Shown here piece after piece: positions 1 through 5,869 of a stretch of 40,042 nt of DNA; position 1 is the stretch's first letter; each line of letters opens with the position of its first letter. Both the position numbers and the translations under genes were made by a program. The DNA comes from a virus. The notes beneath the pieces are model-generated. The model saw only the letters and a program-made list of their open reading frames with translations. It was not told the origin of the DNA and did not search any database. The stretch lies in IMG/VR virus record IMGVR_UViG_3300029770_000022; one strand, written 5' to 3'.

Positions 1-180
1 GCGGCCTCTGCGACGGGCTATCGGGGCGCGGCCTCTGCGACGGGCTATCAGGGCGCGGCCTCTGCGACGGGCTATCAGGGCGCGGCCTCTGCGACGGGCA
101 CTCGGGGCGCGGCCTCTGCGACGGGCTATCGGGGCGCGGCCTCTGCGACGGGCTATCGGGGCGCGGCCTCTGCGACGGGC
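1..180 (+). repeat. 27-bp coding tandem repeat, 6 full units plus a partial; continuation of the array at 39583..40042
   Basis: Unit is gcggcctctgcgacgggcNNNcNgggc, read directly. It translates in frame 1 as AASATG-x-x-G. Confidence 0.95.
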
Positions 181-381
181 GAAGCGTCGGTCGCTATGGC
201 ATCCGGATGTGATGGCCGTGTAATGGGCGCTATCGGCTGCGCGATCTTCGCCGTGGAGCGAGGGAAATTTGATGGCAATACATGGCAGATTGTCTCCGCC
301 GCAGCCGGAATCGTGGACGGCGTAACGCTCAAAGAAAAGACGTGGTACAAGTGCGTCGGCGGGAAATTTGTGGAGGTGTGA
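1..381 (+). CDS. 3' part of the repeat-containing protein whose 5' part is 39214..40042
   Basis: Frame 1 is open from nt 1 with stop TGA at 379-381. Translation: (AASATGxxG)n then EASVAMASGCDGRVMGAIG...KCVGGKFVEV. Confidence 0.85.
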   Translation, partial: AASATGYRGAASATGYQGAASATGYQGAASATGTRGAASATGYRGAASATGYRGAASATGEASVAMASGCDGRVMGAIGCAIFAVERGKFDGNTWQIVSAAAGIVDGVTLKEKTWYKCVGGKFVEV

Positions 382-384
382 CGG

Positions 385-1143
385 GTGACGCATCTGAGCC
401 TGTTTAGCGGCATCGGAGGGCTGGATCTGGCGGCGGAATGGGCCGGGTTTGAAACCGTCGGACAGTGCGAATTTGCAGACTATCCGACAAAGGTACTGGA
501 AAAGCACTGGCCGGACGTGCCGCGCTGGCGCGACATCCGGACTTTGACAAAGGAGAGCTTCTATGAGCGAACAGGACTACGAACAGTTGACGTTATTTCC
601 GGCGGATTCCCCTGTCAGCCGTTCTCCGTGGCAGGAAAGCAAAAAGGAAAATGGGATGATCGTTACCTATGGCCTGAGATGCTCCGAGTTATCCGAGAGC
701 TGCGCCCGCATTGCGTTGTCGGTGAGAACGTTGCTGGACTTGTTCGAATTGCGCTTGAAGAAATACTTTCCGAATTGCAAAGCATCGGCTATGAAGCAAG
801 GGCCTACAGTTCTACGGCTCATGATGTCGGAGGACTGCACAAGGGAGAAAGAATTTTTATCGTGGCCGCGCCCGACTACGGGAGCACCGCTTTGCGGAGG
901 GACGCACAATTTCCGGCAGATGGTGATATTGAGGGACGAAGGAATAATCACGGAAGAGGAGAGGAGAAACCTAACTTGTGGAAGCGGTGGGAGAACGAAC
1001 CCCGCCCTTATGGAGTGGCTAATGGGATTCCCCATCGGGTGGACAGACTTAAATGCCTCGGAAACGCAGTAGTCCCGCAGCAGGCATATCCGATCTTCCG
1101 CGCATTGCGGGAGGAATTAACGAGGATGGAGGAAACAACATGA
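385..1143 (+). CDS. DNA (cytosine-5) methyltransferase, alpha-like polypeptide lacking TRD and motif IX
   Basis: GTG start 4 nt after the upstream stop. Motifs: FSGIGG (I), GFPCQPFS (IV), ENV (VI), HKGERIFIV (VIII-like), LGNAVVPQ (X). Only about 45 aa separate VIII and X, and no GFPxxW motif is present. Confidence 0.9.
   Translation: MTHLSLFSGIGGLDLAAEWAGFETVGQCEFADYPTKVLEKHWPDVPRWRDIRTLTKESFYERTGLRTVDVISGGFPCQPFSVAGKQKGKWDDRYLWPEMLRVIRELRPHCVVGENVAGLVRIALEEILSELQSIGYEARAYSSTAHDVGGLHKGERIFIVAAPDYGSTALRRDAQFPADGDIEGRRNNHGRGEEKPNLWKRWENEPRPYGVANGIPHRVDRLKCLGNAVVPQQAYPIFRALREELTRMEETT
563..1072 (+). CDS. Nested alternate-frame ORF inside the C5-MTase gene; beta-like polypeptide carrying a motif IX-like segment
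   Basis: AGGAG (551-555) lies 7 nt before ATG 563. The 169-aa ORF has a balanced, protein-like composition, unlike other alternate-frame ORFs here. It contains LSWPRPTTGAPLCGG and NPALMEWLMGFPIGWTDL, the latter matching the C5-MTase motif IX consensus. Confidence 0.6.
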   Translation: MSEQDYEQLTLFPADSPVSRSPWQESKKENGMIVTYGLRCSELSESCARIALSVRTLLDLFELRLKKYFPNCKASAMKQGPTVLRLMMSEDCTREKEFLSWPRPTTGAPLCGGTHNFRQMVILRDEGIITEEERRNLTCGSGGRTNPALMEWLMGFPIGWTDLNASETQ

Positions 1144-1502
1144 TCAAAGAAGAAATCGTAAAGGCGCTGCGGTATTGCGCCGACGGGGAGTCTTGTGCTG
1201 ATTGCATCTATTGCACCCTTGGATTGCCGCATCTCCCGTGCTATCAAAAGGACACCGATGCCGCCGACCTGATCGAGGCACAGGCGGCGGAGATCGAGAA
1301 GCTGAAAGCGCAGGTGCCGAGGTGGATTCCGGCAGCGGATAAGATTCCACCGGATCAAGAGGAAGTGCTTGTGCTGACGCAGAGCAAAAACGGAGTGCGG
1401 AATGTGGATAAGGGCTACTGGGCGATTGACCATTTTATCCATCGCGGCCGATCGGAGGTCACGCACTGGATGCCGCTGCCGGAGGAGGAGGCGTTGGCGT
1501 GA
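1140..1502 (+). CDS. DUF551-like phage protein with an N-terminal Cys-rich/coiled module
   Basis: ATGA overlap with the MTase stop, GGAGG upstream. The C-terminus (WIPAADKIPP...VLVL...THWMPLPEEE) resembles DUF551. The N-terminal ~60 aa are paralogous to 2276..2464. Confidence 0.7.
   Translation: MIKEEIVKALRYCADGESCADCIYCTLGLPHLPCYQKDTDAADLIEAQAAEIEKLKAQVPRWIPAADKIPPDQEEVLVLTQSKNGVRNVDKGYWAIDHFIHRGRSEVTHWMPLPEEEALA
1257..1319 (+). repeat. 63-bp direct repeat, copy A (61/63 identical to 2387..2449)
   Basis: gatgccgccgacctgatcgaggcRcaggcggcggagatcgagaRgctgaaagcgcaggtgccg, read in both places. Confidence 0.95.
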
Positions 1503-2185
1503 CAAGTAGCATAACGTACAATATGGACTGCATGCAATACATGAAATTGCAGCCAGATAAGGCGTTTTCACTCGCGGTTGTAGACCCACCGTATTTTAGC
1601 GGCCCAGAAAGAAGAGGATACTACGGAAACAAGGTAAGCAAAATAGGGGTTCACAGAAGCTATAAACGCTCCCCAAAGTGGGAAGTTCCAGGGGCGGCTT
1701 ACTTTGATGAACTCTGCAGGGTAGCGCAAAAAATCATAGTTTTTGGGTGCAACTACTACAAATACAATTTCCCTCCTGGGCGAATTGTCTGGGACAAATG
1801 CAACGGGGGAAACAGCTTCAGCGACTGCGAGCTGGCCGCAACAAACTGCCATGAAAGCGTTAGGCTGTTCCGCTATATGTGGAATGGCATGATGCAGGGA
1901 AAAAGTATTGAAGATGGAGCCACCATGCAGGGCAATAAGAGAAAAAATGAAATAAGAATACACCCAACGCAGAAACCTGTTGCACTGTATGCTTGGATAT
2001 TCAGCCGCTATGCAAAGCAGGGGGATAGAATCCTTGATACACATTTAGGGAGTGGATCAAGCAGGATTGCAGCATGGGATGCAGGGGTGGATTTCGTCGG
2101 GATTGAACTGGACAAGTATTATTTCGAGCTGGAAGAAAGAAGATTTGCCGAGTATTCTTCGCAAATGAGAATATCGGAACTGTGA
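1499..2185 (+). CDS. DNA N6-adenine/N4-cytosine methyltransferase (DPPY type, PF01555-like)
   Basis: GTG start 7 nt after GGAGGAGGAGG. Motifs: VVDPPYF catalytic motif, HPTQKP, LDTHLGSGSS AdoMet motif. GC is visibly lower than in the flanks. Confidence 0.85.
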   Translation: MTSSITYNMDCMQYMKLQPDKAFSLAVVDPPYFSGPERRGYYGNKVSKIGVHRSYKRSPKWEVPGAAYFDELCRVAQKIIVFGCNYYKYNFPPGRIVWDKCNGGNSFSDCELAATNCHESVRLFRYMWNGMMQGKSIEDGATMQGNKRKNEIRIHPTQKPVALYAWIFSRYAKQGDRILDTHLGSGSSRIAAWDAGVDFVGIELDKYYFELEERRFAEYSSQMRISEL

Positions 2186-2464: not shown

Positions 2465-2769
2465 AGGTCTACATAGCCGGTAAGATCACCGGGGATCCGA
2501 ACTACAAGGGGAAATTTGCCGCAGAGGCAGAGAAAATCCGCGCGGCGGGGCACATTGCCCTGAATCCGGCGGAGCTGCCGGAGGGAATGGAGCCGGGCGA
2601 CTATATGCGGATTTGTTTTGCGATGATTGACGTTGCGGACGTGGTGGCGTTTCTGCCGGGGTGGCAGGAAAGCAGCGGGGCAAATGTAGAATGGTCGTAT
2701 GCCTGCTACTGCCGCAAGCGCGTGATCGGCAGCGCATACGTCGAGGATTGGGCGACGGTGGAGGTATGA
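2461..2769 (+). CDS. DUF4406-like (nucleoside 2-deoxyribosyltransferase-like fold) protein
   Basis: MKVYIAGKITGDPNY...NP...YM...DVVAFLPGWQESSGANVEW matches the remembered DUF4406 consensus. ATGA overlap with the upstream stop. Confidence 0.7.
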   Translation: MKVYIAGKITGDPNYKGKFAAEAEKIRAAGHIALNPAELPEGMEPGDYMRICFAMIDVADVVAFLPGWQESSGANVEWSYACYCRKRVIGSAYVEDWATVEV

Positions 2770-3110
2770 AACAGAGCGGATATCTGAAGCGGCAGGCGGA
2801 TGTGCAGGATCGCCTGCTGAAAATTGGGACGGAGGTCGGGCAGCAGCAGGTCTTTGACGCGCTGGCGCTGGCACTCCGCGATCCGGCGGTCATGGGCGCG
2901 AAAGGCGTACTCGGTCCGGCAAAGGTCAAGACCGTGTGCCAGCGTGTACAGGAGATTGTGCATGAGTTTGCGGATGCATGGTCTCCCGGCCCGGAGCAGG
3001 ACTACCAACAGGACAGGCTTGACCGGGCGCTGAAGGACGTTTTTGGCGGGGATTTGCAGCCGTTTGCAGTGCGATACCCGTTTATCAAAGATCAAAAAAT
3101 CAGGAGGTAA
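2766..3110 (+). CDS. Hypothetical protein
   Basis: ATGA-coupled start after GGAGG. 114 aa, no recognisable motif. Confidence 0.6.
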   Translation: MKQSGYLKRQADVQDRLLKIGTEVGQQQVFDALALALRDPAVMGAKGVLGPAKVKTVCQRVQEIVHEFADAWSPGPEQDYQQDRLDRALKDVFGGDLQPFAVRYPFIKDQKIRR

Positions 3111-4192: not shown

Positions 4193-4406
4193 ATTGAAAC
4201 CCTGCCCGTTTTGCGGAGGAACGGCAAAGATGCGGCATGATTCTGATGGCCCCGGCTATTCCTATGTCGAGTGCGAAAAATGCCGCATGAAAAGCGTTCG
4301 ATTTATGCGTGCTTTTGAGAGAGCAAGTGATGAGGCCGCGGCAGATTTTTGGAACAGGAGGGTGAGCGATGTACATTCTGGACAGCGCACAGAAAAGCGT
4401 GATTGA
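4185..4406 (+). CDS. lar: Lar-family restriction alleviation protein
   Basis: GTG start. LKPCPFCGG...CEKC...AAADFWNRR is the Lar signature. Confidence 0.75.
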   Translation: MIELKPCPFCGGTAKMRHDSDGPGYSYVECEKCRMKSVRFMRAFERASDEAAADFWNRRVSDVHSGQRTEKRD

Positions 4407-4665
4407 ATTGAAACCCTGCCCGTTTTGCGGGGGACAAGTTAAGTTCTTGACCATGGACGACGAGTTTAACATTCGCGACGAGGAGTATGAAAAAGACCCG
4501 TGGAGCGGATTGCAGTATGGACTGTACCACGACGTGAAAGATAACGAAGGCTGCCCAATTGCCACACACGTCGACGAAATACTTGGAGTGTATGGCTACG
4601 ACACGAGAGAGGATGCCGCTGATGCTTGGAACGAGATGTGGAACAGGAGGCGCAGAAATGGCTGA
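4369..4665 (+). CDS. lar: Lar-family restriction alleviation protein (tandem paralog with insertion)
   Basis: AGGAGGG upstream of ATG 4369. LKPCPFCGG...AADAWNEMWNRR. The 32-nt segment 4399-4430 is identical to 4185-4216. Confidence 0.7.
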   Translation: MYILDSAQKSVIELKPCPFCGGQVKFLTMDDEFNIRDEEYEKDPWSGLQYGLYHDVKDNEGCPIATHVDEILGVYGYDTREDAADAWNEMWNRRRRNG

Positions 4666-4957
4666 ATACATTGAGCGAGAAGCTGCGATTGACGCAATAA
4701 TGAAGGTGTACGTCAGAACTGCCGGGTACAAGGCGAGAGAACGCATTTTTGAGGCAGAAGAAGCAGTACACCGATTGCCTGCCGCCGACGTTGTGCCGGT
4801 GGTGCGGTGTAAAGATTGCCAGAACTTGCGGCAGAGCGGGACGGGATGGTGGTGCTGCGAGTATGGCGGGACGATCACTCCGCAGGATTATTGCAGCCGG
4901 GCAGAACGTATTACCAACACAGCAGAGCCGCAGCGCGTGCCGTGGGAAGCGGATTAG
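4658..4957 (+). CDS. Hypothetical phage protein
   Basis: AGGAGG lies before ATG 4658. MAEYIEREAAIDAI...VVRCKDCQ. Confidence 0.6.
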   Translation: MAEYIEREAAIDAIMKVYVRTAGYKARERIFEAEEAVHRLPAADVVPVVRCKDCQNLRQSGTGWWCCEYGGTITPQDYCSRAERITNTAEPQRVPWEAD

Positions 4958-4969
4958 GAGGGAGAAAGC

Positions 4970-5161
4970 ATGACAGATAACCAGATCAAGTCCCCAGACC
5001 TGTGTGAGCGCTGCCGGTACTCTGACGAGTTGTGCGAGGCTCCGCGATCCTGCACAGGCTGCAAGCAGCACATCAATGCGCCGACGATCCTTTATCTCTG
5101 CCGGTGCGACACCGTAAAAGACGGAACGGTGTGTAAGTATTTTGAGGAGGCGGAAATGTGA
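4970..5161 (+). CDS. Small Cys-rich protein (possible zinc binding)
   Basis: AGGAGGGAG SD. CxxC...CxxC...CxC pattern in 63 aa. Confidence 0.55.
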   Translation: MTDNQIKSPDLCERCRYSDELCEAPRSCTGCKQHINAPTILYLCRCDTVKDGTVCKYFEEAEM

Positions 5162-5418
5162 AAGAAACGATGGTACTTATCAACCCGCGCAAAGGCGACG
5201 GAAACGGCGTGTGTGACGCGCGAGTTCCGCTGCGTGAGCTTGTCCCAGGCCTGCGGCTGACGCTTCCAGTCAATGGAACTGGCCACAACGATCCCCCGGT
5301 GTCGCATAGATGCGTCGTCCGTCATGTGCATTATGCGCACCACTGGATCCGAGTAGAGTACAAAATGAGCGGTCAGACGCTGTCGGAGTGCTTCAAATTT
5401 GTAGAGGAGGCGAGTTAG
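5158..5418 (+). CDS. Hypothetical protein
   Basis: GTGA-coupled start, 86 aa. Confidence 0.5.
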   Translation: MKETMVLINPRKGDGNGVCDARVPLRELVPGLRLTLPVNGTGHNDPPVSHRCVVRHVHYAHHWIRVEYKMSGQTLSECFKFVEEAS

Positions 5419-5419
5419 C

Positions 5420-5869
5420 ATGTATTATGGCTGCGACATGGGCTATAAAATGGCCGAAAATGATCTTCGCAACTATGCTGCAAACAAGGCCGCAATTATC
5501 AACCTTCGGGAGCAGATTAAAAACTTGGAGGATGAGGCCGGACAGATTCGGAGCGCGACAGCAGATGCAACGCCGGTGCAGGGCGGCGGCTCCACGCGTG
5601 AGGATCGGATGCTGTCTAACATCCATATGCGGGACAAGCTCGCCGGGGCGTTGAAATCTGCGGAATCGGATGTTTCCAGAGTGGAGCGGGCACTTGCGCT
5701 GCTGGATGACGAAGAGCGGCTGATCCTAAACCGGTTCTACATCAATCGACACAAAGACAGCCTTTTCAGGCTGATGGAGGAGCTAGGAATCGAGCAATCC
5801 GCAGTTTACGAGCGAAAAAGCAAGGCCTTCTTCCATTTTCGGAAAGCACTATACCCGGCAGCGCTCTAA
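5420..5869 (+). CDS. Sigma-70 region-4-like transcription regulator (ArpU/RinA-type late regulator by position)
   Basis: GAGGAGG SD. C-terminal ERLILNRFYI...LMEELGIEQSAVYERKSKAFFHFRKAL resembles a region-4 HTH. It sits just upstream of the packaging genes. Confidence 0.55.
   Translation: MYYGCDMGYKMAENDLRNYAANKAAIINLREQIKNLEDEAGQIRSATADATPVQGGGSTREDRMLSNIHMRDKLAGALKSAESDVSRVERALALLDDEERLILNRFYINRHKDSLFRLMEELGIEQSAVYERKSKAFFHFRKALYPAAL

Follow-up and report, generated by a model that had tools for sequence, protein, structure and literature searches.

A methyltransferase gene at positions 385 to 1,143 of IMG/VR virus record IMGVR_UViG_3300029770_000022 raises the question of whether one stretch of DNA here specifies one protein or two. 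In C5 cytosine DNA methyltransferases, a large domain holds motifs I–VIII and X, a small domain holds a variable region and motif IX, and the specific DNA contacts are all made by the small domain (PMC3404938). The window analyzed here is the whole stretch of 40,042 nucleotides (nt). An earlier, sequence-only reading of this window had proposed that the methyltransferase gene, alpha, contains a complete second gene in another frame, beta, which supplies a motif IX that alpha lacks. Our analysis indicates that the locus probably encodes a two-subunit C5 cytosine DNA methyltransferase, with one DNA stretch read in two frames and with a split between alpha and beta that follows the boundary between the large and small domains.

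The elements of the locus are two open reading frames (ORFs), their ribosome-binding signals, and a segment in which both frames are constrained:

385..1143, + strand: alpha ORF, read from the sequence, with a GTG start and 252 amino acids (aa).
372..376, + strand: Shine-Dalgarno (SD)-like GGAGG for alpha, read from the sequence 8 nt upstream of the GTG.
563..1072, + strand: beta ORF, the proposed small-domain subunit, with an ATG start and 169 aa, in the +1 frame and wholly within alpha.
551..555, + strand: SD sequence AGGAG for beta, within alpha codons K56-E57 and 7 nt 5′ of the ATG.
1009..1071, + strand: doubly constrained segment, read as YGVANGIPHRVDRLKCLGNAV in alpha (lead-in and start of motif X) and as MEWLMGFPIGWTDLNASETQ in beta (motif IX and tail).

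The nested ORF, its +1 offset, and its AGGAG are as the sequence-only reading had given them, and the two beta motifs that it had pointed out, LSWPRPTTGAPLCGG and NPALMEWLMGFPIGWTDL, are present. Motifs IX and X overlap on the DNA of the window. Homologue alignments have near-invariant columns in both frames within 1009..1071, where the GGG and CCCC runs at 1009..1045 let the same bases read NP...GFP in beta and EP...GIP in alpha.

Alpha has the catalytic motifs that had been claimed for it (I, IV, VI, VIII-like, and X), all read directly in the sequence, and motif IV stands in the context GFPCQPFS:

403..420, + strand: alpha motif I, FSGIGG, for binding of S-adenosylmethionine (AdoMet); alignment A2 has invariant or near-invariant columns there.
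604..618, + strand: alpha motif IV, GFPCQ, with the catalytic Cys77; it aligns to GFPCQ of M.HhaI, and beta reads DSPVS there.
724..732, + strand: alpha motif VI, ENV; the same bases read (V)RTL in beta.
844..864, + strand: alpha motif VIII region, GERIFIV, with an invariant R156.
871..1008, + strand: alpha linker, residues 163–208, with a predicted local distance difference test score (pLDDT) of 27–36; the beta frame encodes the conserved WPxP module there.
1057..1077, + strand: alpha motif X, LGNAVVP, from the sequence.

The family profiles cover only the first part of such an enzyme. PF00145 matches alpha residues 1–162 at profile positions 1–161 of 324 (E = 2e-35; 122.9 bits, cut-off 22), and the match to TIGR00675 (108.2 bits, cut-off 100.65) is confined to the N-terminal half of the profile, whereas phrog_363 matches alpha over its full length (E = 3e-75). 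The comparison of both translations with PF00145, which the sequence-only reading had suggested, thus yielded a half-profile match for alpha but none for beta. An alpha match that stops at position 161 is not the single-chain layout, in which the variable region and motif IX lie between motifs VIII and X, and an artificial linear composite of alpha and beta parts gave no extension of the PF00145 match. The C-terminal profile of alpha can be aligned to canonical motif X (hhalign P = 1.7e-5). The AlphaFold2 (AF2) model of alpha is confident at residues 1–165, except for the catalytic loop (residues 79–87), and in a helix at residues 228–251, and residues 166–227 all have pLDDT < 50. Foldseek with this model matched M.HhaI and M.HaeIII over ∼169 of 327 columns, which correspond to the N-terminal part of the large domain. 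Relatives with longer genes have a junk-like alpha linker of variable length, and the beta frame there encodes repeated WPTP modules followed by NPxWVEWLMGFPxGWT. The linker is predicted to be disordered and is free of selection in the alpha frame; alpha is without a constrained or folded target-recognition domain (TRD) or motif IX segment between motifs VIII and X, as had been stated.

Beta can be followed through the homologues of alpha. More than 160 loci were gathered; tblastn with beta reaches the same phage loci as alpha, even at an alpha identity of only 42–57%, and a beta ORF is likewise contained in alpha, in a different frame, in 138 of 140 homologues. Records with both frames open include phage Lily, Bacillus phage yong1, MT838282, phage C72C1, a high-GC Caudoviricetes genome, Mycobacterium phages Royals2015 and Rhynn, and a gut metagenome contig. 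With expectations computed from synonymous-codon shuffles of alpha, the +1 open stretch of the window gene is 174 codons long, and the shuffled genes average 86.5 (p = 0.003, the lowest value that the test can give); comparison among homologues provides much stronger evidence. Among 74 full-length homologues, the median open fraction of the alpha length is 74% for the +1 frame and 16% for the +2 frame, and p ≤ 0.01 was obtained for 57/74 in the +1 frame and for 0/74 in the +2 frame.

Stop codons were counted in 87 representatives with < 80% nucleotide identity to each other, with the core defined as 10 codons before PCQ through the end of motif VIII. This core has no +1 stop in 85 of the 87 representatives, where the shuffles predict 2.1 stop-free genes (mean 3.7 stops), and it is stop-free in the +2 frame in none of them. 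The numbers of +1 stops per 100 codons by region are:

Upstream of the overlap: observed 4.10, expected 3.70.
Core overlap: observed 0.03, expected 3.48.
Linker: observed 0.05, expected 1.24.
Downstream of the overlap: observed 5.93, expected 3.46.

The depletion of stops is confined to the nested ORF and ends at its borders. Substitution rates at alpha codon positions 1/2/3 were taken from 11 clusters of close relatives; in this arrangement, the first base of an alpha codon is the third base of a beta codon:

Upstream of the overlap: 0.069/0.031/0.386.
Core overlap: 0.078/0.044/0.176.
Linker: 0.366/0.189/0.158.
Motif IX/lead-in segment: 0.127/0.054/0.167.
Downstream of the overlap: 0.165/0.138/0.441.

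The shift in codon position is the most telling result for beta. Substitutions in the linker are most frequent at alpha position 1, the third position of beta codons, and selection there therefore reads beta and ignores alpha. In the core overlap, the alpha third-position rate is halved relative to both flanks, and both frames are under constraint. The window's own clade (13 sequences, 66–94% alpha identity) has the same pattern in the linker (1.35/0.43/0.30). Beta is conserved, with purifying selection acting on its own frame, and stop depletion together with the codon-position shift bears out the dual coding that had been proposed.

Codon composition was also compared. The G+C content at third codon positions (GC3) of alpha is 71% upstream of the overlap and 49% over 601..1020 (69/140), which agrees with the earlier hand count of 68/140; the value of 78% for the capsid gene, with which that count had been contrasted, was not reproduced, the long ORFs of the window having a GC3 of 58–69% on the + strand and 42–61% on the − strand. 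Third codon positions of beta are 65% GC, as in a normal gene of the window.

The same arrangement recurs in phage and prophage genes across bacterial phyla. A genome scan with one genome per species returned 80 bacterial or archaeal loci, from Bacillota, Bacteroidota, Pseudomonadota, Planctomycetota, Spirochaetota, Chloroflexota, Desulfobacterota, Patescibacteria, and a few DPANN archaeal bins. In 65 of the 80, PCQ is in the −1 frame relative to beta and is covered by the beta open frame, and motif X is in the alpha frame, mostly 41 nt after the start of motif IX.

These results bear on one objection, namely, that beta is a nonfunctional shadow ORF, a by-product of the amino acids and codon usage of alpha or of sequencing error. 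The +1 frame is indeed fairly open even after synonymous shuffling (mean 90–120 codons), but stops within the ORF, and only there, are ∼100 times rarer than expected, and the antisense frames of the 87 representatives have no excess open length. Parts of the N-terminal half of beta (LFPxDSPxS and SxRMxL) mirror alpha motifs IV and VI, and the core of E. coli dcm has just one +1 stop; the conserved WPxP and IX blocks, however, fall where alpha is not conserved, the periodicity of linker substitutions tracks beta and not alpha, and the geometry is identical in 65/80 genomes from many phyla. Barring alignment artefacts in the codon-position results, this explanation is already refuted, and we assign it next to no probability.

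A different objection grants the beta frame its coding role and dispenses with a separate beta protein: two programmed ribosomal frameshifts, +1 after motif VIII and −1 after GWTDL, would produce one linear enzyme. The sequence-only reading had dismissed such shifts on the ground that the bases of GFPIGWTDL also encode part of the alpha lead-in to motif X. That argument is invalid, as the two shifts would join ...GWTDL to KCLGNAVVP and give a linear VIII-TRD-IX-X chain, and the frame arrangement thus does let them restore the canonical order I–VIII, TRD, IX, X. What the frameshift model offers no reason for is that ∼100 beta-frame codons upstream of any possible shift site are stop-free in 85/87 lineages (2.1 expected), or that a start codon with an SD-like sequence occurs at a fixed position, 16 codons before PCQ, in 84/140 homologues; both count against it. 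Natural in-frame fusions of the alpha N-terminal part to the beta C-terminal part do exist, in L030 and L043, but such fusions are found where there are poly-G or (AC)n tracts. Furthermore, constraint is seen at alpha third positions within the core overlap, no conserved slippery site was seen (none was searched for), and two efficient programmed shifts within one gene are, to our knowledge, unprecedented. We consider the frameshift model very unlikely.

If beta is a separate protein, its sequence can be divided into three parts:

563..850, + strand: N-terminal extension of beta, residues 1–96, overprinted on alpha motifs IV–VIII and kept open by selection.
863..997, + strand: variable-region (TRD-like) module of beta, WPRPTTGAPLCGG...ITEEERRNL...GG, from conserved columns and AF2 helices.
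998..1045, + strand: putative motif IX equivalent of beta, NPALMEWLMGFPIGWT, from hhalign to canonical motif IX.

In the variable-region module, W101, P102, P104, G107, and C111 are invariant or nearly so, and AF2 places helices at residues 114–125 and 131–138 (pLDDT 62–75); in relatives, the WPTP-type module is repeated 0–6 times. Beta as a whole matches phrog_1008 (E = 1.6e-19). For motif IX, a profile of the beta C terminus (82 sequences) was compared with a IX–X alignment of 10 phage C5-methyltransferases and E. coli Dcm. The C-terminal block of beta falls in register with canonical motif IX (LNPxWVEWLMGFPxGW versus LTPrECxRLqGFPd) with hhalign P = 1.9e-4 and a score of 26.5, which was reached by 0 of 200 column permutations (mean 7.9, maximum 20.2); the reversed alignment scored 9.3. 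We conclude with moderate confidence that beta carries an equivalent of motif IX.

With this similarity to the C-terminal region of C5-methyltransferases, all four possible contradictions that are testable in silico have turned out in favor of dual coding: homologues keep the beta frame free of stops (85/87 cores), variation at alpha third positions is suppressed in the core overlap (0.176 versus 0.386 and 0.441 in the flanks), and the periodicity of linker substitutions is shifted to the beta frame (0.366/0.189/0.158).

A second architecture ties beta to the methyltransferase chain. In L179 (reverse-complement coordinates 4292..4984 and 4524..5690), the sole relative with motif X in beta whose DNA was seen, alpha stops after motif VIII and beta overlaps its catalytic core in the +1 frame, a motif division like that of M.AquI. 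L179 beta then runs in frame from motif IX through ∼30 residues and the lead-in EPxxxPRVxxGxPNRVDRLK to motif X. Three further beta′ proteins built in this way, P0274, P0281, and P0366, are known from protein records only. This longer beta′ is the form modelled by phrog_1008 and aligns collinearly with canonical motifs IX and X; its continuation in frame into motif X argues that beta belongs to the methyltransferase chain. The ORF L180 3179..3544 is a deletion derivative in which motif I (LTHLSLFSGVGG) runs straight into QLNPDWVEWLMGFP...LGNAVVP, probably an inactive vestige of an L179-type gene.

The longer beta′ proteins also bear on the two remaining alternatives, both of which accept beta as a real protein. 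In the first, beta is an overprinted gene with a role outside methylation, such as in anti-restriction or regulation. Novelty and disorder are common among overprinted proteins, and beta has no Pfam, NCBIfam, or PDB sequence match, but its C-terminal block aligns to motif IX and the same protein runs in frame into motif X in L179, P0274, P0281, and P0366. Beta has, in addition, been seen only within C5-methyltransferase genes and in a fixed geometry, where it overlaps the alpha linker exactly at the place of the missing small domain. An unrelated function is in our view quite improbable. In the second, alpha alone is active, and beta is a nonessential accessory that modulates specificity or stability or serves as a DNA-binding partner. 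This would fit with the retention of every catalytic and cofactor motif in alpha and with the poor structure predicted for beta alone; it leaves alpha, however, with a stretch between motifs VIII and X that is neither constrained nor folded, when the specific DNA contacts of known C5-methyltransferases all come from the small domain (PMC3404938), and with its motif IX equivalent in beta. The alpha of L179, which ends after motif VIII, cannot be complete alone, as motif X is carried by beta there. An accessory role for beta is therefore also improbable, and the two-subunit enzyme remains our preferred reading.

No plain single-chain relative, with motifs I–VIII, a beta-type TRD, IX, and X in one frame, was present among the candidates examined; these proved to be nested, to have a beta that extends into motif X, or to be frameshift variants at repeat tracts. 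The frames are shifted at eight loci, seven of which carry a G7–G10 or (AC)6 tract at the shift site and one of which (L048) carries none:

L030, 1196-1204: tract at the shift site.
L046, 1324-1332: tract at the shift site.
L053, 1321-1329: tract at the shift site.
L038, 739-746: tract at the shift site.
L049, 1379-1385: tract at the shift site.
L051, 1577-1586: tract at the shift site.
L043, 1320-1332: tract at the shift site.

Tracts of the G7–G10 or (AC)n type also occur in 14 of 140 in-frame genes, mostly in the linker, and the window gene is without one. The repeat tracts reflect either homopolymer sequencing error or phase variation that affects both overlapping genes simultaneously.

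The two architectures may share an origin. The bases of beta EWLMGFPxGWT necessarily read (G)V(A/V)NG(I/V)PxR(V/M)D in the alpha frame, the stand-alone motif IX segment of L179 still reads VVNGVPHRMDNR in the alpha-type (−1) frame, and the lead-in that the longer beta′ proteins carry in frame conforms to this pattern. From this shared pattern, the conserved lead-in of alpha (RVAxGxPxRVD) may have begun as an out-of-frame reading of motif IX, and the form with motif X in beta may have been derived from the nested form by duplication. In five other proteins (P0203, P0215, P0226, P0234, and P0240), the alpha N terminus (to approximately residue 115) and C terminus are near-identical to those of the window, and the middle is different and longer. 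This pattern points to an exchange, by recombination, of the stretch for alpha motifs VI–VIII and the beta recognition modules, and like ends around an unlike middle would fit the exchange of a specificity cassette.

Among known systems, the layout is closest to two natural heterodimers. In M.EcoHK31I, alpha contains motifs I–VIII, X, and the TRD, and a smaller nested beta contains only motif IX (PMC2836561, PMC3404938). The window has in common with it the two polypeptides, a beta gene wholly inside the alpha gene in another frame, and the placement of I–VIII and X in alpha and of motif IX in beta. The TRD of M.EcoHK31I is in alpha, however, where the window alpha has a mere tether; the window beta, at 169 aa (153–347 codons in relatives), appears to carry the whole variable region in addition to motif IX and has a long N-terminal extension that overlaps the catalytic motifs. 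The M.EcoHK31I precedent invoked by the sequence-only reading thus covers the nesting and the position of motif IX; it fails for the TRD, which is here in beta. The likeness drawn here is one of layout.

In M.AquI, the natural split falls within the variable region, with motifs I–VIII in alpha and motifs IX–X in beta (PMC3404938). The window shares with it two polypeptides divided within the variable region, and the likeness is greater for L179, with motifs I–VIII in alpha′ and TRD, IX, and X in beta′, and for the beta′ proteins P0274 and P0281 of the same build. The window differs in that motif X (1057..1077) is in alpha and not in beta and, in its family, the 5′ half of beta overlaps alpha motifs IV–VIII in the +1 frame. 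The M.AquI ORFs, for their part, reportedly overlap slightly.

The single-chain enzymes of PF00145, such as M.HhaI, M.HaeIII, and E. coli Dcm, have the same catalytic large domain and the same order of elements once the beta TRD and motif IX are placed between alpha motifs VIII and X. In the window, unlike in these enzymes, the small domain would be a separate out-of-frame product, and the distance from IX to X has no counterpart, as the two motifs overlap on the DNA. Tandem recognition modules are present in the variable region of the multispecific C5-methyltransferases of the Bacillus phages SPR, phi3T, and SPbeta. These are also phage-borne, and their tandem modules resemble the 0–6 repeated WPTP-type modules in betas of the window's family, but they are single chains with unrelated TRD sequences; that the WPTP modules confer multispecificity is conjecture. 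PHROGs labels both phrog_363 (alpha) and phrog_1008 (beta) as “DNA methyltransferase” and treats them as unrelated families, with no record of the nesting.

How might the two products work together? Alpha would provide the large catalytic domain, with motifs I–VIII and the motif X helix, and would bind AdoMet and carry the catalytic cysteine; a tether of 45–65 residues, without sequence constraint of its own, would join motif VIII to motif X. Beta would provide the small domain, with an N-terminal extension followed by a variable, modular WPxP target-recognition region and then motif IX, and would be translated from its internal SD sequence and ATG on the same mRNA as alpha. Because both would come from one mRNA, alpha and beta would always be co-inherited and co-expressed. 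They would then assemble noncovalently into an active enzyme in which beta sets the target sequence and the middle of the gene is exchangeable as a specificity cassette. The N-terminal extension of beta (∼95 residues) is proposed to be a docking segment on alpha, the weakest step of this scheme. Fragments of monomeric C5-methyltransferases complement each other, and M.AquI and M.EcoHK31I are natural heterodimers (PMC3404938, PMC2836561), which makes an assembly of alpha with beta plausible. From the sequences and these analogies, we infer that alpha assembles with beta, that both are needed, and that beta has a role in specificity.

Several points weigh against the two-subunit enzyme. Support for the translation of beta is indirect, from its AGGAG and ATG in the window and from the start codons with SD-like sequences at a fixed position in 84/140 genes, and binding of beta to alpha is a prediction of the model. 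The motif IX match is a 26-column profile-profile alignment with an hhalign probability of only 48%. HMMER-level searches link beta to neither PF00145 nor any PDB chain, although these searches have low power and also missed an undisputed motif X: beta, the linear composite, and the longer beta′ proteins gave no match to the IX–X part of PF00145, and neither did the clear motif X of alpha. PDB sequence searches with the beta profile, a distant beta, the 26-column motif IX profile, and the beta′ C terminus returned only spurious matches to repeat proteins. The AF2 model of beta alone is poor (mean pLDDT 50, residues 1–54 disordered) and Foldseek with this low-confidence model finds nothing. Lastly, the drop in the alpha third-position rate over the core overlap is small in the window's clade (1.31 versus 1.58), which points to a weaker constraint on the N-terminal half of beta than on its C-terminal half.

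The sequence-only reading had called the layout unusual; it is instead the rule in a large family. A word-indexed search found 1030 beta homologues, and a beta profile search found 18,690 representatives of 50%-identity clusters at E ≤ 1e-3 and 5,485 at 1e-10. Annotation has seldom followed. The nested ORF is annotated only in phage Lily, as gp63 with the note “g62 internal gene,” and the Paenibacillus phage paper lists Lily gp62 and gp63 merely as two “DNA-cytosine methyltransferase” entries. In the two Mycobacterium phage records inspected (L007 and L008), alpha alone is annotated, and in some assemblies, such as L004 (2155..3084 and 2501..3010), the gene caller kept beta and dropped alpha; gene callers thus treat the pair inconsistently. 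Full-text literature contained no description of nesting in this family, within a coverage that lacks REBASE and most subscription journals, so that earlier knowledge is possible. The nested layout is very widespread and, apart from the GenBank note on phage Lily, seemingly undescribed.

The genes downstream of alpha in the window are:

1140..1502: gene for a DUF551 protein (PF04448, E = 5e-8), directly downstream of alpha.
1499..2185: gene for a second DNA methyltransferase, of the N6/N4 type (PF01555, E = 5e-14).

These neighbors suggest an anti-restriction methylation module, and the role of the C5 enzyme in the phage, beside the N6/N4 enzyme, would likely be to protect phage DNA from host restriction. 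Nested C5 genes are paired with Dam or N6/N4 methyltransferases in relatives too (L001 and L174–L176). Just upstream of the methyltransferase gene, a 27-nt tandem repeat (6.7 copies, 96% matches, window positions 1..180) encodes the nonapeptide AASATGY(R/Q)G in frame with an ORF ending at 381, and the repeat-bearing protein leaves the window at its 5′ end. An antisense ORF at 667..1035 (− strand, 122 aa) lies within the doubly coding region, with similar ORFs in L004 and L030; it was rejected as a gene and considered a by-product, since antisense frames are no longer than in synonymous shuffles.

Three wider propositions go beyond this locus, and we offer them jointly and tentatively, as together they seem rather doubtful. 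Short phage and prophage C5-methyltransferases across phyla may represent an old two-genes-in-one design and not single chains, with the specificity subunit encoded by a second frame of the catalytic gene; their tandem WPTP modules may be swappable and possibly multispecific recognition cassettes; and, in some lineages, poly-G or (AC)n slippage in the linker may switch between alpha plus beta, an alpha-N/beta-C fusion, and an off state.

For the family as a whole, the result means that, behind the label “DNA cytosine methyltransferase,” many thousands of genes contain a second one that annotation nearly always misses. Cloning alpha always brings beta along, and published activities of such enzymes therefore cannot tell alpha from beta. 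If the two-subunit reading is true, this would be a third natural way of splitting a C5-methyltransferase and the sole one along the boundary between the large and small domains, and it would serve as a natural system in which to swap specificity subunits. A long (150–350 codon) nested gene on the same strand, conserved across phyla, with two conserved motifs on the same bases and a clean comparative signal, makes a strong test case for the detection of dual coding and for ideas on the origin of genes by overprinting. The recognition cassette and the possible phase variation, in turn, bear on how phages evade restriction.

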